Of a stretch of 64,000 nt of DNA, positions 30,184 through 59,931 are shown piece after piece (within the stretch, counting starts at the first letter, position 1; each line of letters starts with the position of its first letter). The notes beneath the pieces are model-generated. The model ran no database searches. It was not told where the DNA came from and saw only the letters and a program-made list of their open reading frames with translations. The translations under genes and the position numbers were made by a program. Source of the DNA: an uncultured candidate division WWE3 bacterium. Lineage in GTDB: Bacteria > Patescibacteriota > WWE3 > UBA101185 > UBA10185. The DNA lies in contig CAVXUZ010000005.1 in assembly GCA_963765125.1 (NCBI GenBank), forward strand, positions 33,596 through 97,595. Direction: 5' to 3'.

Positions 30184-31253
30184 TGTCAGAAAAATTAAAC
30201 GCCACACCGCTTTTAGAGAAAATATTGGACCTAAACGCGTCAGATTTACTGCTATCTGTAACAAATGTACCTATTATTAGAGTTCACGGTAAACTTCAGC
30301 AATTGCCCGGTTACGAGCCTTTAACCGCTTTAGACATTGAGTTTTTTCTTTCGCAAATACTAAAAGCAGATCAAAAGGACATTTTAGACGTTAATAAGGA
30401 GATTGATTTTTCAGTTGCGCTTGGTAATAAGGCAAGATTTAGGGTAAATGCATTTTTTCAAAAAGGCTACCCCTCAGTTGCTTTAAGAGCAATCCCCTTG
30501 CGAGTTCCGAACTTAGAAGAATTAAATTTGCCAAAAATTGTTGAACAACTAACAAATCTTAAACAGGGATTAGTGCTAGTAGTCGGTCCCACTGGTCATG
30601 GAAAGTCCACGACGATTGCTGCAATGATCGAAAAGATCAACGAAACCAGATCAGAGCATATCATCACGATAGAAGACCCAATTGAGTACATCTTTTTTAA
30701 TAAGAAATCACTCATTGAGCAGCGCGAAATGTACCTAGACACCCACTCTTGGGATGTTGCACTCAAATCAGTTTTACGCCAAGATCCAAATATTGTTATG
30801 GTTGGTGAGATGCGAGATACGCAGACGATGTCTGCAGTTTTGCAGATTTCTGAAACAGGCCATTTGGTTTTTGCTACACTCCACACAAATTCAGCTGCGC
30901 AGACAATTGAAAGAATCATTGTCTCCTTCCCAGAAAGTAAGCAAGGTCAGGTTAGACAGCAGTTATCACAGGTTATTGAGGCCGTAGTCTCTCAAAGGTT
31001 AGTGCAGGCAAAAGGTGGAGGTTTAATACCTGCGGTTGAAATATTACTTTCGACCGGAGCTGTGAGAAACTTGATACGAGAAGGTAAAACCCACATGATA
31101 GACAACGTAATTAGCACAAGTTTAGGTATAGGCATGATAGACCTAGACCACAGCCTTGCAGAGCTGGCGATGCAAAACAAAGTAGATATTGAAGAGGCGA
31201 TGAAATATTCACTCAAACCAGATAATTTAAGGACTGCTCTCAAGCAGAAATAA
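30183..31253 (+). CDS. pilT: Twitching-motility (retraction) ATPase PilT
   Basis: VVGPTGHGKSTTIAAMIEKIN (Walker A). ITIEDPIEY. AIRNLIREGK motif region (GAVRNLIREGK). 356 aa. 1-nt overlap with pilB. Confidence 0.85.
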   Translation: MSEKLNATPLLEKILDLNASDLLLSVTNVPIIRVHGKLQQLPGYEPLTALDIEFFLSQILKADQKDILDVNKEIDFSVALGNKARFRVNAFFQKGYPSVALRAIPLRVPNLEELNLPKIVEQLTNLKQGLVLVVGPTGHGKSTTIAAMIEKINETRSEHIITIEDPIEYIFFNKKSLIEQREMYLDTHSWDVALKSVLRQDPNIVMVGEMRDTQTMSAVLQISETGHLVFATLHTNSAAQTIERIIVSFPESKQGQVRQQLSQVIEAVVSQRLVQAKGGGLIPAVEILLSTGAVRNLIREGKTHMIDNVISTSLGIGMIDLDHSLAELAMQNKVDIEEAMKYSLKPDNLRTALKQK

Positions 31254-31255
31254 AT

Positions 31256-32458
31256 ATGCCAGTTTACGCTTACACTGCCTCAGATACTGCCGGTAATAAA
31301 AGAACAGGTGCAGTTGACGCGCGAAACAGAGAGTTTGCCGTTGGTCTGCTTAAAAACCAAGGTTTATACGTTATTGAACTGCACGAAAAACATGATTCTT
31401 TGATTGATAAACTAGGTCTTTTTGGTAATGTTCCTGAAGGTGAAGTTGTAGCTTTCACAAGACAATTTTCAACAATGATCAGCGCAGGGCTGCCAATTTC
31501 ACGTGCGTTAGACGTTCTATCTTCACAATCAACAAGTAAAGCTCTGAGAAAAGTATTAATCGATGTTTTAAGAGATATTGAAGGCGGTTCTTCACTCTCG
31601 ATGGCGCTTGGTAGATACCCAGACGCGTTTCCTGCTACGTATCAAGCTTTAGTTCGCGCAGGCGAAGCATCCGGTAAGCTCGACGATATTTTAAAACGAC
31701 TCGCTACAACATTAGAAAAACAAAGGGAGCTAAACTCTAGTTTCAAATCGGCGATGATTTATCCGACAATTGTTTTCTTTGCCATGATAGGTGTTTTTGT
31801 GTTAATGATGATATTTGTTATACCAAAACTCGCAGATATGTATGAAAGTTTAAACGTTGAGTTGCCCGCAACAACCCAGATGATGATAGATACTTCAAAC
31901 TTCATTGTAAACAATATCGTAGTTATGATTATTTTATCTCTCGGAGGCATAATCGCCTTAAGATCATTTTTGAAAACAGAAACCGGCCACGAGTTAGTCG
32001 CAGAAATTACATTTAAACTACCAGTTTTTGGAAAAATAAATAAGCAAAAAGAAGTTACAGATTTTACAAGGACGTTAGGTTTGTTAATCGCATCTGCTAT
32101 ACCAATTGTTGAGGCATTAAATATCACTGCTGGTGTTATGAAAAATAAATTTTATCGCGAGGCGGCAATAAACGCAGCGGCTGCTGTTGAAAAAGGTAAC
32201 AAACTTTCGGATTACATCAGATCAAATTCAGTTTTTCCTCCCCTACTCGGGCAAATGACTAGTGTTGGTGAAGAGACGGGGCAACTCGACGAAGTATTAG
32301 ACAGAGTTGCAAACTATTTAGAGGGTGAAGTTGACCACGCAGTAAAAGGGCTATCTTCTGCACTAGAACCAATAATTTTGTTAATGCTGGGCGGGATGGT
32401 TGGGTTCTTGATTATCTCGATTATTACACCGATTTATAAGATTACGAGTGCGCTGTAA
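31256..32458 (+). CDS. pilC: Type IV pilus platform protein PilC (GspF family)
   Basis: Two GspF repeats, each with a cytoplasmic domain plus TM segments (…GLPISRALDVL…; …AIPIVEALNITAGV…). 400 aa. Confidence 0.85.
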   Translation: MPVYAYTASDTAGNKRTGAVDARNREFAVGLLKNQGLYVIELHEKHDSLIDKLGLFGNVPEGEVVAFTRQFSTMISAGLPISRALDVLSSQSTSKALRKVLIDVLRDIEGGSSLSMALGRYPDAFPATYQALVRAGEASGKLDDILKRLATTLEKQRELNSSFKSAMIYPTIVFFAMIGVFVLMMIFVIPKLADMYESLNVELPATTQMMIDTSNFIVNNIVVMIILSLGGIIALRSFLKTETGHELVAEITFKLPVFGKINKQKEVTDFTRTLGLLIASAIPIVEALNITAGVMKNKFYREAAINAAAAVEKGNKLSDYIRSNSVFPPLLGQMTSVGEETGQLDEVLDRVANYLEGEVDHAVKGLSSALEPIILLMLGGMVGFLIISIITPIYKITSAL

Positions 32459-33212: not shown

Positions 33213-34097
33213 ATGTTGCAACAAGTATTGTTATACATTTTGGTTTTTGTCTCAGGTCTATTTTTTGGATCATTTTTAAATCTCGTTTCTGATCGAGTAA
33301 CTAAAGGTAAATCAGTTTTATTTGGTAGATCACAATGCGACCATTGTAAAAAACCACTTGGTGCAAAAAATCTTATTCCTGTTGTTTCGTATATTTTACA
33401 AAGAGGAAAGTGTGCAAAGTGCCACAAGAAAATTTCATTTTACTATCCATTTTCAGAAATTCTTACCGGTTTAGCATTTGTTGGTGCTGCAGTTTCAGCA
33501 AGAATCACAGTTTTAGTTAACGTTTCAACAATATTTACATTCATATATCTTCTTGGTGTTGCTAGCTTTTTTATCATCTTGCTTTTAACAGATATGAAAG
33601 AAAGAGTAATCCCAAATAAAATTATTTACCCAGCAATTATTTTTGTTTTCTCATTTTTAATATTAAGCGCAGTAATTTATTTCTACATGTATTACATCCA
33701 ACTTAAAGCTGACACGTTTGGTCAATATTTACTCGACGCTGGAATTATGAAAGTACAAATCTTAAACTCATTAGTCTCTCTGGGAATTTTGATTTTAAGT
33801 TCCCTGGTTATTTCTGCATTCTTTGCGTTTTTAGTTTGGATAACAAAGGGCAGAGGTATGGGAGCTGGCGACATTAGACTCGGATTTTTAATTGGGTTGT
33901 TTAACGGCTATCCATTTAACTTTATCGCAATATTTTTAGGATTTGTCTTGGGAGCCCTAGTAAGTTTGGTTCTAGTTGTTTTAAAGAAAAAGACGATGAA
34001 AGACACAATTGCATTTGGGCCATTTTTAATCTTAGGGAGTGTTGTAGCAATGATCTGGGGAAGCCTAATTTTACAGTGGTATACAAACCTTCTCTAA
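33213..34097 (+). CDS. pilD: Prepilin peptidase / N-methyltransferase PilD (A24 family)
   Basis: N-terminal zinc-binding CDHCKKPL...CAKCHKKI. Catalytic Asp regions (TDMKERVIPN; GAGDIRLGFLIG). 294 aa, polytopic. Confidence 0.85.
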   Translation: MLQQVLLYILVFVSGLFFGSFLNLVSDRVTKGKSVLFGRSQCDHCKKPLGAKNLIPVVSYILQRGKCAKCHKKISFYYPFSEILTGLAFVGAAVSARITVLVNVSTIFTFIYLLGVASFFIILLLTDMKERVIPNKIIYPAIIFVFSFLILSAVIYFYMYYIQLKADTFGQYLLDAGIMKVQILNSLVSLGILILSSLVISAFFAFLVWITKGRGMGAGDIRLGFLIGLFNGYPFNFIAIFLGFVLGALVSLVLVVLKKKTMKDTIAFGPFLILGSVVAMIWGSLILQWYTNLL

Positions 34098-35218
34098 TCT
34101 TTTTTAGGTCGTTTTTTAGATAAAGTAAACCAAAACGTCGATCCCTTACCAACCCCATCAGAAAAGACTCCGATTTTTCCACCCATCGCATCAACAAAAA
34201 GTTTTACGATATAAAGACCAAGTCCCGTGCCCTCTGCTTCTGCAACAGTTTGGTAGGACGAATCTAGCCTTCCGAATTTATGAAATAGTCTTTCTAATTC
34301 ACTTTGTTTAATTCCCCTACCCGTATCAATAATCGAAATTTTTATAAAATCACCAGCGTTTCTGATATCAATTTTTATTTCTCCTTGATCGGTAAATTTC
34401 ATAGAATTTCCAACGAGATTTACCAAAATTTCTCTCAATTTCGATGTGTCGACATACGCATAGTGCTTATTATGCTCGTTTGAAATTGTAAGCTTTAAAC
34501 CTTTTTCGTCTGCTTTAACTTTAAAATCAGAAACAAGTTCTGCAACAGTGTCTACGAGTTCGACGCGGTTAATTACTACGTGAAGTGCGTTTTGTTCAAT
34601 TCGCGAAACACTCAAAATATCGTTGATAAGTTCGATCATTCTCTCGGTACTTAAAATCGCTTTTTTAATATACTCTTTTTGTTTATCGGTAAGAGTTCCG
34701 TGTTTTTCAGAACTAATCATCCACAAATAACTTTTAATAATTGTCATTGGAGTGCGCAGCTCGTGTGAGGCAACAGACAAAAACTCATCTTTGGTTCGTT
34801 CAAGTTCTTTGATTTTTGTAATATCAGATATTGTGATTAGGCTTTCCTCTTGCCCCTCACCAAGTTCAATAACTGCAGTCTTTACCTCTACTCGATATTT
34901 ATTGCCTTTTGCTAAAAGGATGATGTCTGCAATATGACTATGTTTTGAACTTTTCTTAAAGCAAAAGCTTTCTGGGCTTACCGGAGAATTATCAGTTGAA
35001 TAAAGCTCTAATAAGTCGTGAACTCCAGCTCCGATGGCGTTTTCTTTTTTTACACCGAATTGCTCCTCAGCAGCTTTATTGAAAAGAGTAATTTTATAAT
35101 GTTTATTTACAGCAAGAATTGATTTTGAGATAGCATCAATAATTTGCTCAATACTTGCCTTGTGAGAATTATTTTTGGTCAAACTTTCAATATTGGGCAT
35201 TAAAACTATTTTACACAA
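34094..35218 (-). CDS. Sensor histidine kinase with a PAS domain (cytoplasmic; HisKA plus HATPase_c)
   Basis: PAS block (ITLFNKAAEEQFGVKKENAIGAGVHDLLELY). H-box SHELRTPMTIIKSY. N/G boxes (NLVGNSMKFT; DTGRGI; GTGLGLYIVK). The track start is TTG at 35218; an alternative ATG start lies at 35200. Confidence 0.8.
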   Translation of the reverse strand: MCKIVLMPNIESLTKNNSHKASIEQIIDAISKSILAVNKHYKITLFNKAAEEQFGVKKENAIGAGVHDLLELYSTDNSPVSPESFCFKKSSKHSHIADIILLAKGNKYRVEVKTAVIELGEGQEESLITISDITKIKELERTKDEFLSVASHELRTPMTIIKSYLWMISSEKHGTLTDKQKEYIKKAILSTERMIELINDILSVSRIEQNALHVVINRVELVDTVAELVSDFKVKADEKGLKLTISNEHNKHYAYVDTSKLREILVNLVGNSMKFTDQGEIKIDIRNAGDFIKISIIDTGRGIKQSELERLFHKFGRLDSSYQTVAEAEGTGLGLYIVKLFVDAMGGKIGVFSDGVGKGSTFWFTLSKKRPKKD

Positions 35219-35248
35219 AAAAATATTTTGGTATATACTAGAAATACT

Positions 35249-35635
35249 ATGGAAGAAAACATTACAAAGAAAAAAACCGTACTTTTAGTTGAGGACGAAG
35301 TAGATTTAGTAGATTTATACACAGAAATATTAAACGAAGCGGGTTACGATGTACTCCCCTCTTATGACGGTGAAGATGGAATTTATAAAGTAAAAAATGA
35401 AAAATGGGATTTGTTACTTTTAGATATTATGCTCCCAGAAAAAGATGGTATGGCTGTACTTGAAGAAATGCAAAAAACTGAGGCCTCAAAAAAGGGACCG
35501 GTGGTGCTACTCACAAACCTAAACAGTGAAGATCTCATAGAACGTGCATACAAACTAGGTGCCGATGACTATTTAATCAAATCAGAAATTTCGTTAGACG
35601 ATATTGTTAAAAAAGTAAAACAGTATCTTAGTTAA
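35249..35635 (+). CDS. Single-domain response regulator (receiver only), divergent from the histidine kinase
   Basis: VLLVEDEVDLVDLYTEIL...DLLLLDIMLPEKDGMAVLEEMQ...VVLLTNL...K. Start taken at ATG 35249 (MEENITKKK); the track uses TTG 35228. The stop overlaps the start of the next gene. Confidence 0.8.
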   Translation: MEENITKKKTVLLVEDEVDLVDLYTEILNEAGYDVLPSYDGEDGIYKVKNEKWDLLLLDIMLPEKDGMAVLEEMQKTEASKKGPVVLLTNLNSEDLIERAYKLGADDYLIKSEISLDDIVKKVKQYLS

Positions 35636-36171
35636 TGTTTAAGCTTAGTAAAAAAAGAATCACAATTATTTTATTTGTTATTGTCATTTTGGCAATTACC
35701 ACAGCCGCCGTCATTTTTATACTTCCAAAGATAACAAATAAAAAAAGTGTAGTTAGAGATCAGCCAATTGCATACGAGGACACTAAAGACACAATTGTTC
35801 CCGAAGAAGCAGCAGCGTTGATAGAGTTAAATGCAATTTTAGATCCTGAAACCGACTATTGGGCAGACTGGAGCTGGCAAGCAAAATATGCAGAGTTTAT
35901 CATAAGCAATTTAAGTGTTGCTGATAATTACATTGTTGGCTACATTAGCAGACCGGTGGCGTTATCGAATAATAATGCGCAGATAGTAAAACACCCGTTA
36001 TGTGATCCTACAAAGTCGATTGCGGTTTCCAAAGATGATCCACTTAGAGGTATAAATGCAAAAGGCTTTGAATTTATGCAACGTGCAAGCTCTGGAGATA
36101 TTTTCTACACCAATTGTTTAGACGAGGAGTGTTTTAACATTGGCAATAACTGTGTCTTAGTAGAATTTTAA
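35635..36171 (+). CDS. Membrane-anchored small secreted protein, member 1 of a C-x3-C-x6-C C-terminal motif family
   Basis: N-terminal signal-anchor KRITIILFVIVILAITTAAVIFIL. C-terminus ...ASSGDIFYTNCLDEECFNIGNNCVLVEF. Clear paralog of the 40272 gene and related to 36174. Confidence 0.6.
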   Translation: MFKLSKKRITIILFVIVILAITTAAVIFILPKITNKKSVVRDQPIAYEDTKDTIVPEEAAALIELNAILDPETDYWADWSWQAKYAEFIISNLSVADNYIVGYISRPVALSNNNAQIVKHPLCDPTKSIAVSKDDPLRGINAKGFEFMQRASSGDIFYTNCLDEECFNIGNNCVLVEF

Positions 36172-36173
36172 AA

Positions 36174-36749
36174 ATGAAAAAATTAATAAACAAAAAAATA
36201 TTACGAATCTTATTAATAATACTTGGCGTTATATTGCTGGGCTTTATAGTTAGCCCATTTATTTTTAGTAAACGAGTAGAAATTAATGAGTTTGACCAGA
36301 TTTATATAAAGAGTAATAGATTTGTTTTACCTAAATTAATTTCAATAGAAAAAAGACAAGATATCGGGGTTAAAGAGGCAGGTTTAATCAAAACCGAAAT
36401 TATCTCTCCTGAGGGTAAAACTGGTATTAACGAACTTTCTTATTGGGATACGTGGACTTGGAACACAAAATTGGTAAAACTAGAAATCTTAAGAGTTTCT
36501 GTTGAAAGCGGTAATGTTTACGCAAGTCTATTACTTCCTGCCGAGTCGAGTGGGTTGTCACCAGAAAAAGAGTACGAAATCAAATGCAGTGTTGATGAAA
36601 CATCTGTTATTTATTTTCGTGATCCAGCTAATCGCAACGATGAGTATAAACCAGCGATTGAACTGTTAGCGTCCGGTGACCTGTTCTACGCATATTGTTT
36701 GGATTCTCAATGTAGTTCTCTTGGTCGACGCTGTATTATTGAGCGCTAA
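36174..36749 (+). CDS. Membrane-anchored small secreted protein, member 2 of the C-x3-C-x6-C family
   Basis: Signal-anchor ILRILLIILGVILLGFIV. C-terminus ...LASGDLFYAYCLDSQCSSLGRRCIIER. Confidence 0.55.
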   Translation: MKKLINKKILRILLIILGVILLGFIVSPFIFSKRVEINEFDQIYIKSNRFVLPKLISIEKRQDIGVKEAGLIKTEIISPEGKTGINELSYWDTWTWNTKLVKLEILRVSVESGNVYASLLLPAESSGLSPEKEYEIKCSVDETSVIYFRDPANRNDEYKPAIELLASGDLFYAYCLDSQCSSLGRRCIIER

Positions 36750-36772: not shown

Positions 36773-36811
36773 CCCATAGTTGATATTTGCCACATAATTT
36801 GAGACAATCCA
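36773..36811 (+). promoter_or_regulatory. Conserved upstream element CCCATAGTTG-N16-TGAGACAAT, copy 1 of 4 (upstream of the 36855 lipoprotein gene)
   Basis: Same bipartite motif as at 40866, 41465 and 42179. Confidence 0.4.
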
Positions 36812-36854
36812 ATTAAACTTAAATAACCCGAAAAAACAATAAAAAGGAGGCAAA

Positions 36855-37748
36855 ATGAAGACTAAGTTTTTTTCAGGGTCTTGGCTATTTAGCCGCACTT
36901 TAAAAACTCTAATTCTCGTACTACTTATTACGTCAGTTGTTATGACAATACTTATCGGCTGTACGCCTGCGACGTCAGTTCTAGTCGTAGAACCGATTGT
37001 AACTACAAACACACCGCTAATAGAGATTGTTGGCGAGTCGACAGCTACAGCAGTACCTACGGCTACCCTATTTCCGACCATGGTTGTTACGCCCGAGCCA
37101 ACTACAATGCCAGAAAATTTTGGGTGGCCCATCTTACAAGAAATGCCTTACGGTGAGGAACGTGCAGAGATTGAGGCTTCGCTTGCAAAGGACCCTAACC
37201 TTGTAAAAGGAACTCCCTCTGAGAATGAGCGGTTCATGATTGCTGATGTATGGGGTTTATGGCCACTTCTTTATAATCCAAACACAGGGATGTTACCTGA
37301 CTATTCAAATAAAAGTCTTCCAGATGACCTTTACAGTTATCTGAATGTTTGGTATAGAGGCAGTCATAAATTTTATGTCGACACCGGAACAAGTGGTAAC
37401 CCGGCGATGTTTGCAGAACAACTAGACGGTAATCTACCGATAATGTTTAAATACCCATTTGTGGTGTATGAATATGCAAATAGCACGTCGAGTAGTCTTT
37501 GCCAGTTTTTCGAAGCCGGAACGTTAGCCGGCTATGGATTGGGTGAAGAGACTGTCGATGGGCAGCCAAGTGACATACCAACCGGAATCGCATATCTGGT
37601 TGAAAGGTTTGGTGATTCTAAAATCATCAATGATGCAGACAGGCTGTACTGTAGTAACTTTGATCCTGTCTCAAACGACTTCTTAACCATAGCAAAGGCA
37701 AAAGGTTACGATACTATAGTTGCACAGGTTTTGGAAAAGCTCAAATAA
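36855..37748 (+). CDS. Putative lipoprotein or secreted protein (297 aa), unknown function
   Basis: Strong SD (AAAAAGGAGGCAAAATG). Signal peptide with lipobox-like LIGC. Thr/Pro-rich linker. An upstream CCCATAGTTG...TGAGACAAT motif is shared with the 40949, 41548 and 42261 genes. Confidence 0.5.
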   Translation: MKTKFFSGSWLFSRTLKTLILVLLITSVVMTILIGCTPATSVLVVEPIVTTNTPLIEIVGESTATAVPTATLFPTMVVTPEPTTMPENFGWPILQEMPYGEERAEIEASLAKDPNLVKGTPSENERFMIADVWGLWPLLYNPNTGMLPDYSNKSLPDDLYSYLNVWYRGSHKFYVDTGTSGNPAMFAEQLDGNLPIMFKYPFVVYEYANSTSSSLCQFFEAGTLAGYGLGEETVDGQPSDIPTGIAYLVERFGDSKIINDADRLYCSNFDPVSNDFLTIAKAKGYDTIVAQVLEKLK

Positions 37749-37847
37749 AATAATCGAGAATTAGAAAATTATTAAGTAACACCCTCAGTCACTTTGAGGG
37801 TGTTTTTTATTGTTATTCTATAAATAATCGTTTAGTATTAATAAGTA

Positions 37848-40097
37848 GTGAACAATACTTCACCTTGCCTAAAACTTAATACCATATTATTAATCCGTTT
37901 GTTAATTTTTATTACTAGTGCTTTTTTACTTTCATTTGCTACAAAAAACGTTATTTACGCAGGCTGCGCCGCAAACGAATGTGACGGACCAGGTGAATAC
38001 GAGTGCGAGAATGGAACGATGTGCTGTACAGGCGGCGGATGTCCATCAAACAGATGTCCAGCCAACTGCACTGCTAGAATTTATTCGGGTTATTGGACGT
38101 GTAATTGTACACTATCAAGAGAGGTATGTTCCATTCCTACACCGTATGATTGTGAGCCTTGCATTACTGAAAGGGTGTGTGGACCAGAGACAACATGTGG
38201 TTATGTGAGTAGTTCAACATGTGCACAATGGGCTACCCGTTCTTACCCATGTCGACAAAAGACATGTTGGTATAATTATTGTTGGTACACTTGGGGCACA
38301 TGCAAGTCAACATACTGTGCAAGATACTATCAGGTTTGGCGCTGCTCAACCACAGACGTTTGCAAAAATGTTAAAAATTGTAGTACTTGCTACAAAAAAA
38401 ATTGCTTCATAGAGTACTACGAAGATCAAACAACCTACACCGCTAGAGGTACATGTAAATACTGTACACAGGGTGGCGGCGGGGGTGGTGGCTCTTGCAC
38501 AACTAACCCAACTGCGCCTACTTTAAATACCCCATTTGAAGGTTCGTCAATGCAAGGTAGTCTAGCAATTGATTTTAGCTGGAATGCCCCGACAAGTTGG
38601 GGGGCTAATTGTACGCCCGCAAGTTACTTTCTAATGGTTGATGACGAGAGTAGTTTTACAGACCCCCGAGTGCACAGCGTGTCGTACCCAACTTCGACTA
38701 CATCACAAACCGTTACAATGCCGGGAGAAGATACTTATTTTTGGAGAGTTCAGGCGTGTAATCAACGCGGCTGTACCTCATCTGTCACGAGGTCATTTAA
38801 CTTTAGTTGCGGTATAGCTCCTGGTAGAGCAACTAACCCATCGCCGTCAGATGGTGCGACCGACGTTACTATTGCACCAACACTATCATGGGATGGCCCA
38901 TCAGATTGGGGTTCAGCATGTGGTATGAACAACAACAATAGATTCACAGTTTACGGTCAGGTTAAAAATGGAGTATGTGAGGGTCCAGGTTCTGGCTATT
39001 CTGCAATACCTTCTTGTACAAATTTACCTGAGGGTACGACATCTTGTATAGACCCATTTTTCAACACCAGCAGTACCCCTTACTGTTGGTATGTTTCCAC
39101 AAACAACGGTACAGAGACGACGCTTTCTGCCTCTACTGCTGATGAAGTATGGGAGTTTAGAACAGAAGAGCCCATCACTTATACAAATTGGGTTACTGCA
39201 TTGTTTGGTGATTTTTATGCAGGAGGTTTAACCGAGCAATACCCAAGCACAACACGCTATGTGACGCCTTGGAATCCTCCATATGCAGCATATGAAAAAG
39301 AACCTACCTCCTCTGATGAGCCAAACGTAGCACTTATCACAAGCAATGATACGGATATAACAAATGATAATGGTGCTAATGAATACAATCCCGGATCTCA
39401 ATCAAATCTATCAGTTGAATTTGCTAACTTTGAAGAAACATGGCCTGCAAGCTACCGCGGTACTCCCCCAGCTTCAGCTATTAATTTACCTTTAAATGGA
39501 GGCTCTTGTTCAGATATCTTCACAGGTAGTACAAAGCTTGATCCTTACGAAGTATATGAAGCTGATGCAAGCTGTATGTCAGAAGCAATCAATGCAGTTG
39601 ATGGTAACCCCAATGGCTATTCACTAGCCTCAGACGGTTATACAGTTATCTTTGTTACAGGAAGCACAAACCTTGAAATAGACAGTCCATTTACCACATC
39701 AAATGATGATTACCGTGTGGTATTTGTTACTGGACCTAATGTTTCAGTACAGATAGATAGAAACTTAAAGTTAGCAACCGATCCTGATTTTAACAGTGAG
39801 CCTTTAATTGAAGCTGCCTTTATCGTTACCAAAGACTTAACCATTGAGGGTGCTGCTAACGATTCATCTATAGACCTAACTACTGATCCAGATGGTTCAA
39901 TTATGGTTGAGGGTCCACTTATCGCAAGAACAGTAAACTTTAACAGAAACAGAGGTCTAACTAATCAATATCCATCAGAGATTGTTAAATACAATCCTAA
40001 CTACATATATAACCTAACAGAACAAGAAAGAACCTCTCTAAAAAACAATGGTTCAGGCCTGTTTGTTATTGATATTACTTGGATGAATGTAGACTAG
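37848..40097 (+). CDS. Giant secreted protein 1 (749 aa): signal peptide, extremely Cys-rich module, Gly7 linker, two FN3-like domains, and a conserved C-terminal domain shared with the 43554 gene
   Basis: About 40 Cys in residues 38-218 (CAANECDGPGEYECENGTMCC...CKYCTQGGGGGGGSC). FN3-like repeats with the W...Y.W.VQACN..GC...TRSF pattern. C-terminal 261 codons nearly identical at the DNA level to 44931-45714. Confidence 0.7.
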   Translation: MNNTSPCLKLNTILLIRLLIFITSAFLLSFATKNVIYAGCAANECDGPGEYECENGTMCCTGGGCPSNRCPANCTARIYSGYWTCNCTLSREVCSIPTPYDCEPCITERVCGPETTCGYVSSSTCAQWATRSYPCRQKTCWYNYCWYTWGTCKSTYCARYYQVWRCSTTDVCKNVKNCSTCYKKNCFIEYYEDQTTYTARGTCKYCTQGGGGGGGSCTTNPTAPTLNTPFEGSSMQGSLAIDFSWNAPTSWGANCTPASYFLMVDDESSFTDPRVHSVSYPTSTTSQTVTMPGEDTYFWRVQACNQRGCTSSVTRSFNFSCGIAPGRATNPSPSDGATDVTIAPTLSWDGPSDWGSACGMNNNNRFTVYGQVKNGVCEGPGSGYSAIPSCTNLPEGTTSCIDPFFNTSSTPYCWYVSTNNGTETTLSASTADEVWEFRTEEPITYTNWVTALFGDFYAGGLTEQYPSTTRYVTPWNPPYAAYEKEPTSSDEPNVALITSNDTDITNDNGANEYNPGSQSNLSVEFANFEETWPASYRGTPPASAINLPLNGGSCSDIFTGSTKLDPYEVYEADASCMSEAINAVDGNPNGYSLASDGYTVIFVTGSTNLEIDSPFTTSNDDYRVVFVTGPNVSVQIDRNLKLATDPDFNSEPLIEAAFIVTKDLTIEGAANDSSIDLTTDPDGSIMVEGPLIARTVNFNRNRGLTNQYPSEIVKYNPNYIYNLTEQERTSLKNNGSGLFVIDITWMNVD
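39267..40050 (+). repeat. 784-bp intragenomic direct repeat, copy 1 (partner at 44931-45714); in-frame coding sequence
   Basis: Base-by-base comparison of the printed lines. The copies are identical except two adjacent third-position synonymous differences at 39956-39957 (ggtcta versus gggtta). Confidence 0.85.
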
Positions 40098-40271
40098 CTA
40101 CTTTAAAATAGGGTTATGTTATTAAACCAATATTGAATTTTGGCCTGTTGATAAGGTAAGAAAAAGTCTTATGATATTGTTAACAAAACTAGACAGTAAA
40201 GACCCAGTAGATTGCGATCGCAAACTGTGTGCCAGTGTCTACTTAAAAAATAGAAATTTTGTAATTTAATA

Positions 40272-40802
40272 ATGCCCGTTAAAGATTACATACAAAAGAA
40301 AAAATTCTCCGTCACCATACTTCTGATAGTTATTGTTGTAACACTAATTACTGTAGGTTTCGTAATGCCGCTCATCACCAACCCAGAAAAAAAAGTTGCT
40401 AAAGATACAAAGACAACGCAAGTTGGAAAACTAGACGCAAACATGTTGCCATCAGAATTTGTAAAAGCGTTTTCAGAAGGGTCAATGTATTTTAAAAATT
40501 GGAACTGGCATGACAAAATGGTGCAAGTCATAATTACAGACTCAAGCGTTAGTGAAGATTCGATGGCAGGCTACATCAGAAACCTAACTGATAAATTTCC
40601 TGACAGAGAAAACAGAAGATTTTTTAACTCGTGCACGCCTGAACAAACTTTTGCTGTGTCTAACGTCAACCCAACTAAAAGCGTTTTAGCAAAAGGTTTT
40701 GGTTTAGTGAGCCGTGCCTCTGCGGGAGACATCTTATATACGTACTGTCTTGACGAAAACTGTGTAAACCTCGGCAAGAGCTGCGTGCTGATTGAATTTT
40801 AA
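40272..40802 (+). CDS. Membrane-anchored small secreted protein, member 3 of the C-x3-C-x6-C family
   Basis: Signal-anchor FSVTILLIVIVVTLITVGFVM. C-terminus ...ASAGDILYTYCLDENCVNLGKSCVLIEF. About 45% identical to the 35635 product over the C-terminal half. Confidence 0.6.
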   Translation: MPVKDYIQKKKFSVTILLIVIVVTLITVGFVMPLITNPEKKVAKDTKTTQVGKLDANMLPSEFVKAFSEGSMYFKNWNWHDKMVQVIITDSSVSEDSMAGYIRNLTDKFPDRENRRFFNSCTPEQTFAVSNVNPTKSVLAKGFGLVSRASAGDILYTYCLDENCVNLGKSCVLIEF

Positions 40803-40865
40803 ATAATCCCCTACTTTATGTTTTTTGGTTTGGTGATTTTTTTTGCGTCGGTGGATAACCGATAG

Positions 40866-40902
40866 CCTATAGTTGATTTTTATGCTGAAAATGTGAGTTA
40901 AT
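40866..40902 (+). promoter_or_regulatory. Conserved upstream element CCTATAGTTG-N17-TGAGTTAAT (putative promoter/operator), copy 2 of 4
   Basis: The same bipartite motif with the same spacing occurs at 36773, 41465 and 42179, each about 45-60 nt upstream of a secreted-protein gene. Confidence 0.45.
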
Positions 40903-40948
40903 CCTTATCAATTGTATGTGCTCAGTCAATACCGCAAAGGAGGTACAA

Positions 40949-41386
40949 ATGGCTGTTAAGAATGGCTCGGCTGTATTTGTTGTTGTGAGCGTTTTATTAC
41001 TGGTTATGGTACTTGTAGTGACGATTGTTTATATAACATTAAAACTTACTGCACCGATTGAGTTAAGGAGCTTTACGGACGTAACTGACAAAGTTATCTC
41101 TGGAGAGATTGTTTGCGCCCCATTGGGAGACGCGCAGTTAGAAAGAACAAGACTTGGTCTAAAATCAGGTCGCACCACTATAGTAAATCAACTCTACCCG
41201 AGTCATAACGTGTCAGTGGCATGTTCCTTTCTTGTGGTGCTCGAGTCAGCTAATCCAGAAGTAGTTACGATCGTTTATTACAAAAAAGGTGGAGTTAGGG
41301 TAGTGGAGAGGGTTTTAATAGACCCGCGGAATGCAGCGCAACTCTGGAAAAATGCTAAACCGGTAAATGGTAACTTAAATTTATAA
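40949..41386 (+). CDS. Small secreted/membrane-anchored protein, tandem paralog A (146 aa)
   Basis: Start at the ATG preceded by AAAGGAGGTACAAATG, which is the identical RBS context of the 42261 gene. Signal-anchor AVFVVVSVLLLVMVLVVTIVYI. Conserved blocks VISGEIVCAPLGD and VVTIVYYKKGGVRVVERVLIDPRNAAQLWKNA are shared with the 41548 and 42261 products. Confidence 0.55.
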   Translation: MAVKNGSAVFVVVSVLLLVMVLVVTIVYITLKLTAPIELRSFTDVTDKVISGEIVCAPLGDAQLERTRLGLKSGRTTIVNQLYPSHNVSVACSFLVVLESANPEVVTIVYYKKGGVRVVERVLIDPRNAAQLWKNAKPVNGNLNL

Positions 41387-41401
41387 ATTGTAGATTTGTT
41401 A

Positions 41402-41440
41402 GTCCCCATCTCTTTCACCAAGATGTGGGGATTTAATTTG
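41402..41440 (+). terminator. Stem-loop terminator after paralog A
   Basis: TCCCCATCTCTTTCACCAAGATGTGGGGA followed by TTTAATTTG. Confidence 0.4.
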
Positions 41441-41464
41441 TTTGATAGCCCAACACAAATAGTA

Positions 41465-41500
41465 CCTATAGTTGCACTTAGCAAAGATTTATGAGTAAAT
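41465..41500 (+). promoter_or_regulatory. Conserved upstream element CCTATAGTTG-N17-TGAGTAAAT, copy 3 of 4
   Basis: Same motif and spacing as at 40866 and 42179. Confidence 0.45.
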
Positions 41501-41547
41501 AGCATCAAGATAAATCCGTATATTCCACATCAAGGAAGGAGGGAAGA

Positions 41548-42099
41548 GTGGCTACAAATAACAACTTTAGTAAGGTTGTAGTTTTAATGCTTGCTGTGCT
41601 ACTGGTTGCTGTTTCAGGTTGTAATGAGACTCAGGCAAGTGTTTCACCGACCGTTGAACCAACTCTGGCACCAACGATCGTGATTAAAAATATTGCTACA
41701 ACGACGCTGCCACCAACTACCAAGCCCACGTTAGTACCAACACCTTCGGAGGAACTTGGGTCAACATCAACACCAATAGCTGTAGTAGAAATTAGATCAC
41801 TAGATGAATTGATTACTACTGTTAATAATGAAGTTATTGCTGGTGCACCCATCTGTGGAACACCCAAACTTGGGGATTCAGGAGTAACGTTATCTAACGG
41901 TTTTAAGTACTTAAGCTTAAAAACAAAAGTGTTTCCGGATTTAGAAAAAATACTTTGCCAGTACCTTATTATTATGCCAAATGAGCATACTCCAACTGTT
42001 ACAGCAGTATATTTAAGAGATGGTGTGTACCTACTTGAAAATGTAAAGATCGAAAAGAGCCTATTAAATGATTTTTGGAAAAAAGGTTTAACTGAGTAG
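41548..42099 (+). CDS. Lipoprotein, tandem paralog B (183 aa); GTG start
   Basis: Signal peptide with lipobox LLVAVSGC. Thr/Pro-rich linker. C-terminal domain VIAGAPICGTPKLGDSGVTLSNGFKYLSLKTKVFPDLEKILCQYLIIMPNEHTPTVTAVYLRDGVYLLENVKIEKSLLNDFWKKGL is homologous to the 42261 product. Confidence 0.55.
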   Translation: MATNNNFSKVVVLMLAVLLVAVSGCNETQASVSPTVEPTLAPTIVIKNIATTTLPPTTKPTLVPTPSEELGSTSTPIAVVEIRSLDELITTVNNEVIAGAPICGTPKLGDSGVTLSNGFKYLSLKTKVFPDLEKILCQYLIIMPNEHTPTVTAVYLRDGVYLLENVKIEKSLLNDFWKKGLTE

Positions 42100-42120
42100 T
42101 AAACACCTAAGTCGCAATCA

Positions 42121-42162
42121 AACCCCACCTTACTTTTTAAGAAGATGGGGTATTTTTTTAAA
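42121..42162 (+). terminator. Stem-loop terminator after paralog B
   Basis: AACCCCACCTTACTTTTTAAGAAGATGGGGT followed by ATTTTTTT. Confidence 0.45.
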
Positions 42163-42178
42163 AAGCATTTTAACATGC

Positions 42179-42214
42179 CCTATAGTTGCAAATTTACCTA
42201 AAATATGAGTAAAT
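42179..42214 (+). promoter_or_regulatory. Conserved upstream element CCTATAGTTG-N17-TGAGTAAAT, copy 4 of 4
   Basis: Reads as TTGCAA-N17-GTAAAT (sigma70-like) preceded by the conserved CCTATAG. Confidence 0.45.
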
Positions 42215-42260: not shown

Positions 42261-42764
42261 ATGAATGCGAAAAATAACCACACTAAGGTTATGGTTGTTG
42301 TTATTGTTATAGTAGCAATACTGGTCATGGGTTATACCACAGCAGACGCAGGGTATCTTCTGACAGGAAAAAATACTCTGGGATCCAAGGTTGCGCGGAG
42401 CTCAGTGTCGTCTTCGATGGCTGATTCCACCTTGATGTTCTTGCCAATATCCCTAGACGAGAAAATTGATTCTATCGCAGAAGATGTAATTGCTGGAAAG
42501 ACAGTATGCGGTGATCCAGGAGCTGACTTAACAGCCATGAAGTTTGACTCTGGATACAGATACGTAAGATGGCATGTAACAAAGTTTCCGGAGTACAAAC
42601 AGGTGATGTGTAAACTCATTGTTGTGCTACCGTCAGAAAAGTCGTCCACTGTTTTTGTTGTATATTTAAACAACGGCGATTACACGGTTAGTGAGGCCCT
42701 TGTTGATTCCAAAATACTTAAATCTTTTTGGAAAAGAAGTCTATTGATAACCACAGAATCTTGA
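42261..42764 (+). CDS. Secreted/membrane-anchored protein, tandem paralog C (167 aa)
   Basis: RBS AAAGGAGGTACAAATG. Signal-anchor VMVVVIVIVAILVMGY. C-terminal domain VIAGKTVCGDPGADLTAMKFDSGYRYVRWHVTKFPEYKQVMCKLIVVLPSEKSSTVFVVYLNNGDYTVSEALVDSKILKSFWKRSL. Confidence 0.55.
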   Translation: MNAKNNHTKVMVVVIVIVAILVMGYTTADAGYLLTGKNTLGSKVARSSVSSSMADSTLMFLPISLDEKIDSIAEDVIAGKTVCGDPGADLTAMKFDSGYRYVRWHVTKFPEYKQVMCKLIVVLPSEKSSTVFVVYLNNGDYTVSEALVDSKILKSFWKRSLLITTES

Positions 42765-42770
42765 TAGGAG

Positions 42771-42810
42771 ATCCCCACTTCAATTTTATTGGACTGGGGA
42801 TTTACTTTAT
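42771..42810 (+). terminator. Stem-loop terminator after paralog C
   Basis: ATCCCCA-cttcaattttattggac-TGGGGAT has a perfect 7-bp stem and is followed by TTACTTTAT. Confidence 0.45.
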
Positions 42811-42846: not shown

Positions 42847-43575
42847 GTGATGAATGTATTGCCCAAAAGAAACGCCATCCTGGTAAGTGTAATTATAATC
42901 TTGTTTACTCTAACGCTATTATCCATCGTGCCGTACTTAACGTTAAGAAGCTACATCAAAAGAAATGTTGATAAAAATATAGAATATGTGTTTTACGTTG
43001 AGGTAGAAGATTCATTAAAAAATTCAAAATATCCAAATCTTGCGACTTGGTACCTAAGTAAGGTACAGAACTTTTATAAAGCAGTACTTAATAGGGAGTT
43101 TCTTGTAGAGCTACCTGATTATAATACTGTTTTTCAAGCCTACGACTACACCGAATACCCAGCTGTATTTTTGGTCAAGAATTATGACTTACCAACAGAC
43201 GAGATAAGTATTGAATTTGTAATGCCCACTGATTTTGCTGAATTTACAGCAGTAGCAAAGTTGAACTGCGGTAAGGCAACAACGCGTGCTGGTGTATACA
43301 GTGCTAGCCAGCAAACCGAGAAATGGGCAATACTCAAGGAGTTACGACAGAGTAATCTTAGCGAAGAAGACAGGTTTACTTTGATTGGTAAATTATATCG
43401 CGCAATTCCGTTTGAAGAACAGCTATCAGTGGAAAATGGTGTTGGCCAGACAATTCAGGAGATGCTGGAGCGATCAGAAATAACACAGGACAAAAGGCAG
43501 CTAAAATTGGTAACAACTTGTAGAGAGGACCAGTGTGACAATACCTCTGAGCAATGTATTCTGTACATTCAATAA
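42847..43575 (+). CDS. Membrane-anchored secreted protein (242 aa), divergent member 4 of the C-x3-C-x6-C family; overlaps the start of giant protein 2 by 22 nt
   Basis: Signal-anchor AILVSVIIILFTLTLLSIV. C-terminus ...KLVTTCREDQCDNTSEQCILYIQ. Confidence 0.55.
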   Translation: MMNVLPKRNAILVSVIIILFTLTLLSIVPYLTLRSYIKRNVDKNIEYVFYVEVEDSLKNSKYPNLATWYLSKVQNFYKAVLNREFLVELPDYNTVFQAYDYTEYPAVFLVKNYDLPTDEISIEFVMPTDFAEFTAVAKLNCGKATTRAGVYSASQQTEKWAILKELRQSNLSEEDRFTLIGKLYRAIPFEEQLSVENGVGQTIQEMLERSEITQDKRQLKLVTTCREDQCDNTSEQCILYIQ

Positions 43576-45761
43576 ATATGAAAATTAATAAAAACTATAC
43601 TAATAAGAGTGCCTTACCTTTTGTAGCGTCATTGTTTCTTGCGTGTGTTATTTTGTTTAGTCCTGTTGCCGATGCAAAAATTTACAATCCTAAACCAAAA
43701 CCTGGAAAATATATTAACTGGGACAGAGTTTACAAAGAGAGAATAAATAAAATTCATGAGAAGGATGCCAAGATGGCGGCGACTTACGCAAGACTGGCAG
43801 CTAAAAACCCAGATAAGCTGAGAGATTTAATCGATACATGGGCAGCAAACAAAGGTATTACTCATGATCAGTTTAATGTCTGGGAGGTAAAGAATCTTTA
43901 TTCAATAATCTCGGGAGGAAGCGTTGTCCTTGGTAGCTTTGGGCCGTCTGCGGACTATGAGTTTATTGTCAGCGATGACGGCACAAAGATGTATTGGAGT
44001 GACGCCACCGGCGGTTATACAAGTATAACTGTACCTGCGCGTTACACTACAGTATCAGGTCAGTATGCGTCATATAATTCATCAACTGGTGTTGTTTGTT
44101 ACAGTTGGATTGGTTGTACTATACCAACTACCGCATCTAATGGAAATACAAACAATGGATGTAGTGGGCTACCTACGGCGCCACCACTTGTTAGTCCCCT
44201 CAACGGTGCAACAATCTTTGAGAATAAAACGATTAGTTTTCAGTGGGGTGCACCCACTGGGTGGGGTACAAACTGTCCAACTCATGTATATAGGCTACAA
44301 GTTGACGACGAAAACACGTTTAGTGAGCCTTCTGCTTTAGATTCTGGTTTTGATGGTAGTACAACCTCAACGACAGCAGATTTTACTTTAAATAAAGAGT
44401 ACTTTTGGAAAGTTCAAGCTTGTAACGCAAAAGGATGCACCCCCTCTGTAACAAGATCATTCATACTTGGTTGCGGTATCGCTCCAGGAGTTGCATCAAA
44501 CCCAACACCTTCAGACGGTGCAATAGATGTAGTTATTGCACCAACACTGTCTTGGGATGGTCCATCCGATTGGGGCTCAGCATGCGGTATGGATAACAAT
44601 AATACATTTACGGTATACGGTCAGGTTAAAAATGGACTGTGTGAAACTCCAGGCCCAGGTTATTCTGCAATTCCAACTTGTACAAACCTCTCTGAAGCAT
44701 CAACATCTTGTGTAGATCCATTCTTTAACACTCGAAGCACACCATATTGCTGGTATGTAGGAACAAACAATGGAACAGAAAGTAATACGTCAGCAGCAAC
44801 AGCTGACCAAGTATGGGAGTTTAGAACTGAAGACCCCCTTCTCTTTGAAAACTGGGTAACCACACTTTTTGGTGATTTTTATGCAGATACTCTTGCAGAA
44901 CAATATCCTAAATCAGCAAACTACGCATCCCCTTGGAATCCTCCATATGCAGCATATGAAAAAGAACCTACCTCCTCTGATGAGCCAAACGTAGCACTTA
45001 TCACAAGCAATGATACGGATATAACAAATGATAATGGTGCTAATGAATACAATCCCGGATCTCAATCAAATCTATCAGTTGAATTTGCTAACTTTGAAGA
45101 AACATGGCCTGCAAGCTACCGCGGTACTCCCCCAGCTTCAGCTATTAATTTACCTTTAAATGGAGGCTCTTGTTCAGATATCTTCACAGGTAGTACAAAG
45201 CTTGATCCTTACGAAGTATATGAAGCTGATGCAAGCTGTATGTCAGAAGCAATCAATGCAGTTGATGGTAACCCCAATGGCTATTCACTAGCCTCAGACG
45301 GTTATACAGTTATCTTTGTTACAGGAAGCACAAACCTTGAAATAGACAGTCCATTTACCACATCAAATGATGATTACCGTGTGGTATTTGTTACTGGACC
45401 TAATGTTTCAGTACAGATAGATAGAAACTTAAAGTTAGCAACCGATCCTGATTTTAACAGTGAGCCTTTAATTGAAGCTGCCTTTATCGTTACCAAAGAC
45501 TTAACCATTGAGGGTGCTGCTAACGATTCATCTATAGACCTAACTACTGATCCAGATGGTTCAATTATGGTTGAGGGTCCACTTATCGCAAGAACAGTAA
45601 ACTTTAACAGAAACAGAGGGTTAACTAATCAATATCCATCAGAGATTGTTAAATACAATCCTAACTACATATATAACCTAACAGAACAAGAAAGAACCTC
45701 TCTAAAAAACAATGACTCAGGTCTGTTTGTTGTTGATGTTACTTGGATTAGCGACGAATGA
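43554..45761 (+). CDS. Giant secreted protein 2 (735 aa): signal peptide, non-Cys-rich N-terminal domain, FN3-like domains, and the same conserved C-terminal domain as the 37848 gene
   Basis: Signal peptide ALPFVASLFLACVILFSPVADA. The FN3-like region is 70-85% identical to protein 1. The C-terminal 261 codons (44931-45714) are nearly identical in DNA to 39267-40050. Confidence 0.7.
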   Translation: MYSVHSINMKINKNYTNKSALPFVASLFLACVILFSPVADAKIYNPKPKPGKYINWDRVYKERINKIHEKDAKMAATYARLAAKNPDKLRDLIDTWAANKGITHDQFNVWEVKNLYSIISGGSVVLGSFGPSADYEFIVSDDGTKMYWSDATGGYTSITVPARYTTVSGQYASYNSSTGVVCYSWIGCTIPTTASNGNTNNGCSGLPTAPPLVSPLNGATIFENKTISFQWGAPTGWGTNCPTHVYRLQVDDENTFSEPSALDSGFDGSTTSTTADFTLNKEYFWKVQACNAKGCTPSVTRSFILGCGIAPGVASNPTPSDGAIDVVIAPTLSWDGPSDWGSACGMDNNNTFTVYGQVKNGLCETPGPGYSAIPTCTNLSEASTSCVDPFFNTRSTPYCWYVGTNNGTESNTSAATADQVWEFRTEDPLLFENWVTTLFGDFYADTLAEQYPKSANYASPWNPPYAAYEKEPTSSDEPNVALITSNDTDITNDNGANEYNPGSQSNLSVEFANFEETWPASYRGTPPASAINLPLNGGSCSDIFTGSTKLDPYEVYEADASCMSEAINAVDGNPNGYSLASDGYTVIFVTGSTNLEIDSPFTTSNDDYRVVFVTGPNVSVQIDRNLKLATDPDFNSEPLIEAAFIVTKDLTIEGAANDSSIDLTTDPDGSIMVEGPLIARTVNFNRNRGLTNQYPSEIVKYNPNYIYNLTEQERTSLKNNDSGLFVVDVTWISDE
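44931..45714 (+). repeat. 784-bp direct repeat, copy 2 (partner at 39267-40050)
   Basis: See copy 1. Identity breaks exactly at both ends (g/c before, g/a after). Confidence 0.85.
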
Positions 45762-52281: not shown

Positions 52282-52284
52282 TCG

Positions 52285-52836
52285 ATGGCGCAATCTATTA
52301 ACCTCATCCCCCAAGAAGAAAGATTAGCTCAAACAAAAACAAAAGTTGTTAAAGTAAGTACGATTCTAACAGTAGTGCTTCTCGTAATTGTTGGAGGTGT
52401 TGGAGGATATTATTTCTATAGAGCGAGTACGATAAAGTCAGAATTAAATAATCTTGAAACACAGGTAAATTCACTTAGATCAGATATTTCGCAACTTAAA
52501 GACATGGAGATCAATGCGAGAAATCTTTATAAAAAATCGACTGCATTGGGTACTATATTTTCGAGTCGTGTCTATTATTCAAAAATGCTTTCAGCACTAG
52601 AACAGAGTACGCCAGAAGGAATCCTGATTGATTCTTTTGGACTCGGAACCGACCAGACGGTTGCAATTTCAGGCCGAGCAAATACCTATAATGATGTGCA
52701 GAGTTTTACAAATCGATTACTTGAACGCGAATTATTTACTGAGGTTGAATTAAAGTCAGTCGGTCTCGAAAGCCGTCAAGAAAAAGTAAACTTTTTTATA
52801 GTAGTAAGTTACGACTTAGGATTATTACATGAATGA
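52285..52836 (+). CDS. pilN: Type IV pilus assembly protein PilN
   Basis: Short cytoplasmic N-terminus (INLIPQEERL), a single TM, then a coiled coil. Position directly after pilM. Confidence 0.7.
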   Translation: MAQSINLIPQEERLAQTKTKVVKVSTILTVVLLVIVGGVGGYYFYRASTIKSELNNLETQVNSLRSDISQLKDMEINARNLYKKSTALGTIFSSRVYYSKMLSALEQSTPEGILIDSFGLGTDQTVAISGRANTYNDVQSFTNRLLERELFTEVELKSVGLESRQEKVNFFIVVSYDLGLLHE

Positions 52837-57362: not shown

Positions 57363-57492
57363 GGTGCGGGAGGATGGATTCGAACCACCATTTCCGTGCG
57401 AAGTTGGTTCAACATGGGCATTAAGGCCTGATACGCCAGAACACACTCGGCATGTTAACTACCACGGCGCCTTACCACTAGGCCACTCTCGC
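57363..57492 (-). tRNA. Atypical tRNA-like gene (130 nt): canonical acceptor, D and T arms, with a roughly 57-nt insertion within the anticodon loop; isotype undetermined
   Basis: Acceptor GCGAGAG/CTCCCGC (one A:C mismatch). T8. D-arm GCCT-AGTGGTA-AGGC. Anticodon stem CCGTG...CACGG separated by 64 nt. Variable loop AAAT. T-arm GGTGG-TTCGAAT-CCATC. Discriminator A plus CC. Confidence 0.45.
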
Positions 57493-57504
57493 GATTAAAT
57501 CCAG

Positions 57505-59664: not shown

Positions 59665-59685
59665 ATATTCATTCTACCAATTAAC

Positions 59686-59841: not shown

Positions 59842-59931
59842 AAAAAGAGTATAGCAAAGTTGTAAGAGTTTGATTAGTAAGACAAAAAATAACCCTTAAA
59901 GATTTCTCTGTAAGGGTTATTGTGTTGCAGG

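Follow-up and report, generated by a model that had tools for sequence, protein, structure and literature searches.

In a 64,000-nucleotide stretch of DNA from an uncultured candidate division WWE3 bacterium (contig CAVXUZ010000005.1; the whole stretch is called the window below, and positions are counted from its first letter), four genes for small exported proteins are each preceded by the 10-mer CCYATAGTTG, whose first seven bases, CCYATAG, probably represent a lineage-conserved promoter-proximal cis element, of a well-known kind, that marks a small lipoprotein regulon. The motif recurs non-randomly, always at the same position ahead of a transcription unit of its own, and it is conserved in two further genomes. 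We consider it very probable that the four sites are promoters, and we hold with good confidence that CCYATAG is under functional constraint. The composite reading that we favor, with moderate confidence, is that the sites are sigma70-type promoters carrying CCYATAG as a putative regulator site, probably an activating one.

Exact copies of the 10-mer start at positions 36773, 40866, 41465, and 42179 (sites S1 to S4), as the initial annotation of this DNA had reported. All four lie on the plus strand in intergenic DNA, whereas 0.17 copies are expected for both strands together under a first-order Markov model (Poisson P = 3e-5). A weight matrix built from both halves of the bipartite motif that had been described (the 10-mer and a downstream TGAG-containing half), with a variable gap allowed, was run over the 64-kb window. 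The four sites scored 31 to 34 bits and the runner-up anywhere 8.6 bits, which is less than simulated sequences reach at best (mean, 12.6; maximum, 17.8); thus, the window holds no weaker members of the motif, and the four sites form a sharply separate class. A "partial version" proposed earlier at 17679-17726 reached 3.8 bits in the same scan, that is, background. In its exact form, the 10-mer does not occur on the minus strand of the window, the sole match there being a one-mismatch copy, CCCATACTTG, at 44817. A dispersed repeat or DNA uptake sequence was rejected, as there are four copies in 64 kb, on one strand, intergenic, and all within 5.4 kb; an invertible-promoter (phase-variation) switch was rejected for want of exact inverted copies of the 10-mer in the window.

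The four predicted promoters, the genes behind them, and the terminators of these genes are the following (aa, amino acids; nt, nucleotides).

36773..36808, plus strand: predicted promoter S1, CCCATAG followed by TTGATA (-35), a 17-nt spacer, and TTTGA-GACAAT (TG-extended -10)
36855..37748, plus strand: gene for a 297-aa lipoprotein with a signal peptide and the lipobox LIGC; Shine-Dalgarno sequence AAAAGGAGG
37778..37804, plus strand: intrinsic terminator of the 297-aa gene, -18 kcal/mol, z = -4.6, followed by a T-run
40866..40902, plus strand: predicted promoter S2, CCTATAG followed by TTGATT, an 18-nt spacer, and TGTGA-GTTAAT
40949..41386, plus strand: gene for a 145-aa membrane-anchored protein, paralogue 1; Shine-Dalgarno sequence AAAGGAGG
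41401..41433, plus strand: intrinsic terminator of the 145-aa gene, -15.7 kcal/mol, z = -3.0
41465..41500, plus strand: predicted promoter S3, CCTATAG followed by TTGCAC, a 17-nt spacer, and TATGA-GTAAAT
41548..42099, plus strand: gene for a 183-aa lipoprotein, paralogue 2, with the lipobox VSGC; Shine-Dalgarno sequence GGAAGGAGG; GTG start
42122..42151, plus strand: intrinsic terminator of the 183-aa gene, -12.2 kcal/mol, followed by a T7 run
42179..42214, plus strand: predicted promoter S4, CCTATAG followed by TTGCAA, a 17-nt spacer, and TATGA-GTAAAT
42261..42764, plus strand: gene for a 167-aa membrane-anchored protein, paralogue 3; Shine-Dalgarno sequence AAAGGAGG
42769..42803, plus strand: intrinsic terminator of the 167-aa gene, -17.9 kcal/mol, z = -4.0

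Each site has a stop codon or terminator upstream and a Shine-Dalgarno sequence with a start codon downstream, and a gene for a small exported protein follows in every case, in agreement with the earlier claim of four secreted-protein genes. Since each of these genes has its own hairpin terminator, they constitute four separate single-gene units. The distance from the start of the 10-mer to the start codon is constant, 82 to 83 nt (starts at 36855, ATG; 40949, ATG; 41548, GTG; and 42261, ATG), and that from the 3' end of the bipartite motif is 46 to 47 nt, so that the "45-60 nt upstream" given initially fits the latter distance and not the former. The start of the second gene, placed earlier at 40916, is at 40949 (AAAGGAGGTACAAATG; the database protein P0003 has 145 aa). 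The gap between the 10-mer and TGAG is 17, 18, 17, and 17 nt in S1 to S4 rather than 16 or 17, and the right half of S2, TGAGTTAAT, falls outside the pattern TGAG(T/A)(A/C)AAT that had been ascribed to every site. From the sequence, transcription is predicted to start near 36815, 40909, 41507, and 42221, about 7 nt after the -10 element, which would give each unit a leader of ~40 nt ending in a strong Shine-Dalgarno sequence (AGGAGG).

To compare the sites across genomes, we used four related loci, of which L019 (an ENA contig) was found through homologues of the 297-aa protein and L020, L021, and L022 through homologues of a 749-aa protein of the same island. L020 holds two exact 10-mers against 0.08 expected (P = 0.003), both in front of island lipoprotein genes: the first (L020a; CCCATAGTTGCAA...) lies 71 nt after a response-regulator gene and the second (CCTATAGTTGCGA...) between two large-protein genes. 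In L022, the slot that corresponds to S1 holds a copy with one mismatch, CCTGTAGTTGCAA. S1, L020a, and the L022 site share one slot in syntenic islands, after the response-regulator gene or the genes of the Cys-C-terminal family and before the gene for the large Cys-rich protein. In the alignment of the resulting seven sites from three genomes, the invariant positions are CC, TAGTTG, TG, and one A of the -10, and the rest of the spacer and the leader vary. The proteins encoded behind the seven sites are 28 to 32% identical or not detectably related. This combination of variable spacers and leaders with diverged proteins argues for purifying selection on the invariant bases. The -10 region of L020 reads GTGTATAAA as opposed to TGAGTAAAT in the window; judging by these sequences, the signal that is common to the genomes is the 10-mer, and the TGAGnnAAT half, which the initial annotation had treated as a conserved element in its own right, is the extended -10 sequence of the source genome. 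The neighboring large-protein promoters have a similar -35 and -10 (e.g., TTGCAA-N17-TATCAT in L020) and neither CCYATAG nor a leader, so CCYATAG is not a general attribute of -35 regions in these genomes. Two side observations concern the L020 sites. A hairpin follows the -10 immediately at 9086-9171 (GTACGA...TCGTAC) and at 12735-12803 (GTACG...CGTAC), and the two motif genes have an identical start region, AAAGGAGAAGTCTCGTG, with proteins only 28% identical.

The other two loci have the promoter and lack the element. L019 carries two tandem homologues of the 297-aa protein, 57 to 59% identical (the homologues P0006 and P0007 are 57 to 59% identical to it), and S1 is orthologous to the L019 promoters from TTG onward: identity is ~80% from the -35 TTG to the ATG (TTGAAATTTGACGCGAAGTTTGAGATAAT...), similarity ends exactly at TTG, and TTCTGC or TGCTGC stands where the window has CCCATAG. 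This upstream sequence of L019 is a duplicated fragment of the signal-peptide coding region of a neighboring lipoprotein gene, which points to a duplication junction at this very place. Each tandem 296-aa gene follows a duplicate (at 2940-3225 and 4200-4541) of the beginning of the next lipoprotein gene, comprising its upstream region and initial codons; that gene itself is intact at ~5713, and the junction of the tandem duplication is exactly at the -35 TTG. The words CTATAGG and CCATAGG found ~225 nt upstream in L019 were dismissed as coincidence, as they are in the opposite orientation and belong to a duplicated piece of the upstream region of a neighboring gene. L021 (GCA_964510435.1) is fully syntenic with the window; its equivalent promoter, TTGATATTT-N-TGTGTATAAA, is preceded by GTTATTG, and the motif is thus degenerate there, though the adjacent kinase/regulator pair is kept.

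The architecture of the window sites is TTG(A/C)nn, a spacer of 17 or 18 nt, TG, one base, and G(A/T)nAAT, and by sequence it matches the layout of an extended -10 promoter read by the primary sigma factor. The -35 hexamers in L020 and L022 are TTGCAA, TTGCGA, and TTGCAA, so that TTG is invariant in all seven sites, as is the TG of the extended -10 (positions -15/-14), and the spacers in these two loci are 17 or 18 nt depending on the register. S2 to S4 carry the Gram-positive-style T(G/A)TG. All four window -10 hexamers (GACAAT, GTTAAT, GTAAAT, and GTAAAT) have T at -7, and only that of S1 has A at -11. S1 is the sole window site that passes a scan with the consensus sigma70 promoter; the L020 hexamer is TATAAA. 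With the unit structure, the invariant TTG, spacing, and TG in seven sites from three genomes, and the closer similarity of S1 to L019 in promoter and leader (~80%) than in protein (57 to 59%), the sigma70-like reading offered in the initial annotation gains support. CCYATAG occupies approximately positions -42 to -36, contiguous with the upstream side of the -35 TTG, in 7/7 sites, and a semi-conserved flank, (G/C)ATAn, extends the block to about -47 to -36. A conserved block thus abuts the -35 in all seven cases, as does the regulator site, centered near -41, of class II promoters. The earlier proposal that the upstream part is a separate regulatory element is plausible, CCYATAG being the most conserved block across the genomes, but its second half, that the adjacent two-component system is the binder, is unlikely, as discussed below.

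A local peculiarity of S2 is the sequence ahead of its CCTATAG, where a tandem 7-bp copy, CCGATAG, stands after TGGATAACC, a string also found in L020a and L022. The segment 40853-40875 thus reads as TGGATAACC followed by the duplication CCGATAG CCTATAG, and the spacer of this site is 18 nt, not 17; the segment can also be read as three 7-bp units, GATAACC, GATAGCC, and TATAGTT.

Several other identities of the block were tried and rejected. An UP element does not account for the invariant C, C, and G or for the lack of an A/T-rich tract. The promoter of a T7-like single-subunit RNA polymerase shares CTATAG, but upstream of the block only (G/C)ATAn is conserved. Direct repeats of the LytTR type would need a second repeat 21 bp upstream, and none is consistently present. 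A sigma54 -24/-12 promoter is at odds with the spacing of GG and GC and with the absence of TTGC from S1 and S2, and a DnaA box with the occurrence of TGGATAA in only 3/7 sites. The extended site shows no consistent dyad symmetry. Finally, if the 10-mer were itself a -10 (TATAGT), neither a conserved -35 nor a TG would precede it, and the constancy of CC and TTG would be left unexplained.

Among known systems, the sites resemble two most closely. Like the extended -10 sigma70 promoters (TGn, or the "TRTG" -16 region), they have a TTG in the -35, a spacer of 17 or 18 nt, an invariant TG one base before the -10, T(G/A)TG in S2 to S4, and a position upstream of a leader and a Shine-Dalgarno sequence; they differ in the poor window -10s (G at -12 and, in three of the four, T at -11) and in the additional invariant 7-bp block fused to the -35 from upstream. 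Class II activator-dependent promoters (lambda cI at PRM; the MarA/SoxS "marbox") likewise have a conserved element that adjoins the -35 (about -47 to -36) and a weak core, and the asymmetry of the site recalls the monomeric binders of the MarA/SoxS type; here, however, the site is a candidate only, with a conserved core of 7 bp (~12 bp with the GATAn flank). To our knowledge, CCYATAG resembles no known operator in sequence. UP elements, the sites of the alpha C-terminal domain at -38 to -59, share the location upstream of the -35, but they are A/T tracts, while here CC and G are invariant and CCYATAG is limited to one gene class. Mycoplasma vlp/vsp-type loci contain diverging lipoprotein genes with a near-identical promoter, leader, and ribosome-binding region. 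The units described here may be likened to them for their conserved 5' region ahead of diverging lipoprotein coding regions, but the window sites lack a homopolymer tract or invertible element and the signal peptides are not conserved.

According to the composite reading, the primary sigma factor would recognize TTG, TG, and the -10, and each promoter would drive one single-gene unit. A trans-acting protein would bind CCYATAG, possibly up to ~12 bp with the flank, and, once bound, would reach RNA polymerase from the class II position, through sigma region 4 or the alpha subunit, and so compensate for the weak -10. In this way, a few rapidly evolving surface proteins, whose genes neighbor the type IV pilus genes, would be regulated together. 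That a protein binds at CCYATAG and that its binding activates transcription is what we infer from the sequences, an activator being preferred because the -10 hexamers of the window are poor. The following points weigh against this reading. A at -11 is near-universal in sigma70 -10 hexamers, and three of the four window -10s (GTAAAT and GTTAAT) have T there, so they fail the standard sigma70 scan. CCYATAG, at 7 bp and asymmetric, is short for the site of a typical dimeric regulator. The L019 and L021 promoters keep the -35 and -10 with TTCTGC/TGCTGC and GTTATTG, respectively, in the place of CCYATAG, which means that the element is dispensable there or that its factor is absent. Common descent probably links the seven sites, which therefore do not count as independent samples. 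No gene for a DNA-binding regulator or a sigma factor was seen in the window or the related loci, and the earlier description of the motif as "island-specific" holds for the visible 64 kb of the genome only.

The possibility that a dedicated alternative sigma factor reads the whole block (CCYATAGTTG plus a TG-N2-TAAAT-like part) would accommodate the atypical window -10s, with T at -11 in three of the four and an invariant G at -12 where other window -10s follow TAnnnT, as well as the strictly fixed spacing and the long -10 blocks that, within each genome, diverged paralogues have in common letter for letter (window, TGAGTAAATA; L020, TGAAAATAGTGTATAAA). We nevertheless regard it as unlikely: it is the -10 region that differs between the genomes and the 10-mer that does not, L020 has a canonical TATAAA, the combination of TTG, a 17- or 18-nt spacer, and TG is exactly the primary-sigma geometry, CCYATAG taken as a -35 would sit 20 to 21 nt from the -10, which is too far, and the window and related loci revealed no sigma gene nearby. 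The element could also be intrinsic to RNA polymerase, an extended -35 or UP-like contact for sigma region 4 or the alpha C-terminal domain that gives a constitutive boost with no dedicated regulator. Its contiguity with the -35 TTG with zero spacing variation in 7/7 sites, its shortness and asymmetry, and the lack of a regulator gene in the window and related loci all fit; we still find this quite improbable in view of the invariant CC and G in place of the A/T richness of UP elements, and of the absence of the element from other promoter-like regions of the window, from the neighboring large-protein promoters with the same -35, and from the orthologous L019 and L021 promoters. Little probability likewise attaches to CCYATAGTTG being a repressor operator, at which the bound protein would block access to the -35 and keep the genes silent until it is released. 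The site does overlap or abut the -35, and the L020 core (TTGCrA-N17-TATAAA with TG) is strong and would require no activation, but the weak core promoters of the window fit activation better and the conserved bases run upstream of the -35, not into the spacer and start site where most repressors bind.

A functionless relic of the tandem duplication of genes with their promoters is a very unlikely explanation. Three of the four genes are tandem paralogues, the island bears the mark of segmental duplication (its 735- and 749-aa proteins are 81% identical over 72% of their length), and residual similarity extends into the spacer and Shine-Dalgarno blocks; against this, the proteins have diverged to 28 to 32% identity and the flanking non-coding DNA is randomized, yet the 10-mer is identical at 10/10 positions, and it is found ahead of unrelated genes in two further genomes, with island proteins no more than ~50% identical. 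The remaining candidate is the response regulator of the adjacent two-component system, which the initial annotation had named as a plausible direct binder. The genes of this system in the window are as follows.

34094-35218, minus strand: gene for a PAS-HisKA-HATPase kinase, the partner of the response regulator
35228..35635, plus strand: gene for a receiver-only response regulator with no DNA-binding output domain

The kinase/regulator pair is conserved beside the island in the window, L020, and L021, and the first L020 motif comes shortly after the regulator gene, as noted above. The regulator itself, however, has 135 aa, of which residues 18 to 130 are a PF00072 receiver; its L020 and L021 orthologues (84 to 87% identical) are also receiver-only, and L021 retains the pair at 85% identity in the absence of the motif. 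Direct binding of CCTATAG by this protein is therefore very improbable; the system may act indirectly, for example through a phosphorelay to another regulator or a CheY-like control of the pilus.

The motif genes also stand apart in how their translation would begin. Among the 33 window genes with an upstream gap of at least 40 nt, a strong Shine-Dalgarno site is confined to the four motif genes, and on this ground they form a distinct expression class. In 16 of these 33 genes, a TAnnnT hexamer ends 4 to 11 nt before the start codon, where ~7 are expected by chance in this AT-rich DNA; a TAnnnT just before the start codon is a signature of leaderless transcripts. The genome therefore looks, by sequence, largely leaderless and Shine-Dalgarno-poor. 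Examples of genes that show this overall picture are at 15793, 27686, 57646, 20189, 2728, 42850, and 37848, and AGGAG or GGAGG occurs beyond the motif genes in 1 of 25 operon-internal genes. The coincidence of the tag with the only strong ribosome-binding sites of the window suggests two gene-expression classes in one genome. A further, rather doubtful, idea is that the CCYATAG promoter, the 40-nt leader, and the strong Shine-Dalgarno site make up a private expression cassette for fast-evolving surface lipoproteins beside type IV pilus genes, which a dedicated factor (a regulator or a sigma-like protein) might switch on, e.g., upon contact with a host cell; if so, its motif would be a handle for defining the host-interaction regulon of an uncultivated lineage. 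Transcriptional regulation in uncultivated small-genome bacteria is almost unexplored, and here the tag marks only surface lipoprotein genes beside the pilus machinery; the element could serve as bait for a DNA pull-down of its regulator and as a search pattern for co-regulated surface proteins.

We also searched public collections of genomes, metagenomes, and viral contigs, none of which contains the source genome, with the pattern CCTATAGTTG-N16-18-TGAGTWAAT. The scattered single matches (8 in genomes, 10 in metagenomes, and 1 in viral contigs) are attributed to chance because no match is followed by a ribosome-binding site or a start codon. A literature string search for the 10-mer returned chance primer matches only, and one on promoters in candidate-phyla bacteria nothing relevant.

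The 145-, 183-, and 167-aa paralogues are 28 to 32% identical to one another and differ in their export signals, the 183-aa protein having the VSGC lipobox and the other two N-terminal membrane anchors. No homologue of this family was found among 5.8 billion proteins; a profile search of 1.84 billion representatives returned the three paralogues and one marginal match, P0004 (E = 8.5e-4; 1,403 aa), and a distant 175-aa relative was found by chance on L019. None of ten island proteins matched a Pfam family, and the structure models of the 297- and 183-aa proteins (mean predicted local distance difference test scores of 34 and 41, respectively) were unusable. The window as a whole is a large type IV pilus region, with pilB, pilT, and pilC-like genes at 28420-32458, pilin-like genes, a prepilin peptidase gene at 33213, and pilM/N/O-like genes at 51250-53755, surrounded by housekeeping genes that include gyrA, gyrB, dnaB, prfA, efp, and trmD.

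Two further protein families are found in the island. Its large Cys-rich secreted proteins (749 aa, 37848-40097, and 735 aa, 43554-45761), whose similarity is given above, are almost identical in their C-terminal parts, and this identity indicates that the island is a segmental duplication with recent homogenization; the homologues in L020 to L022 are ~50% identical over the C-terminal 430 aa only. A family of small membrane-anchored proteins whose C-terminus is a conserved C-x(4-5)-C-x(5-6)-C tail (e.g., CLDENCVNLGKSCVLIEF), which has no Pfam match, is encoded at 35635-36749, 40272-40802, and 42850-43575 in the window and is present in every related island (L020, 17148; L021, 7872 and 8415; L022, 2459 and 3020).

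Ten housekeeping proteins of the window (those of efp, rpmE, rpsP, gyrB, prfA, dnaB, pilT, trmD, yebC, and hppA) are each a singleton cluster at 90% identity in a collection of ~15 billion proteins, which means that none of the sequenced organisms represented there is closely related to the source organism. Upstream of a tyrosine recombinase gene (18469-19506), the 858 nt at 17611-18468 have no convincing open reading frame and no significant Rfam match (17.6-18.5 kb); they contain two copies of CCTATAGTA, 36 nt apart, with a background score for the motif. Further long gaps are at 3718-4294 and 59665-60521. On the minus strand at 57365-57492, adjoining a tRNA-Ile gene (57504-57578), the full Rfam tRNA model spans 128 nt where ARAGORN makes no call; apparently, a tRNA gene is interrupted here, past its anticodon-stem region, by an intron or other insertion of ~55 nt.

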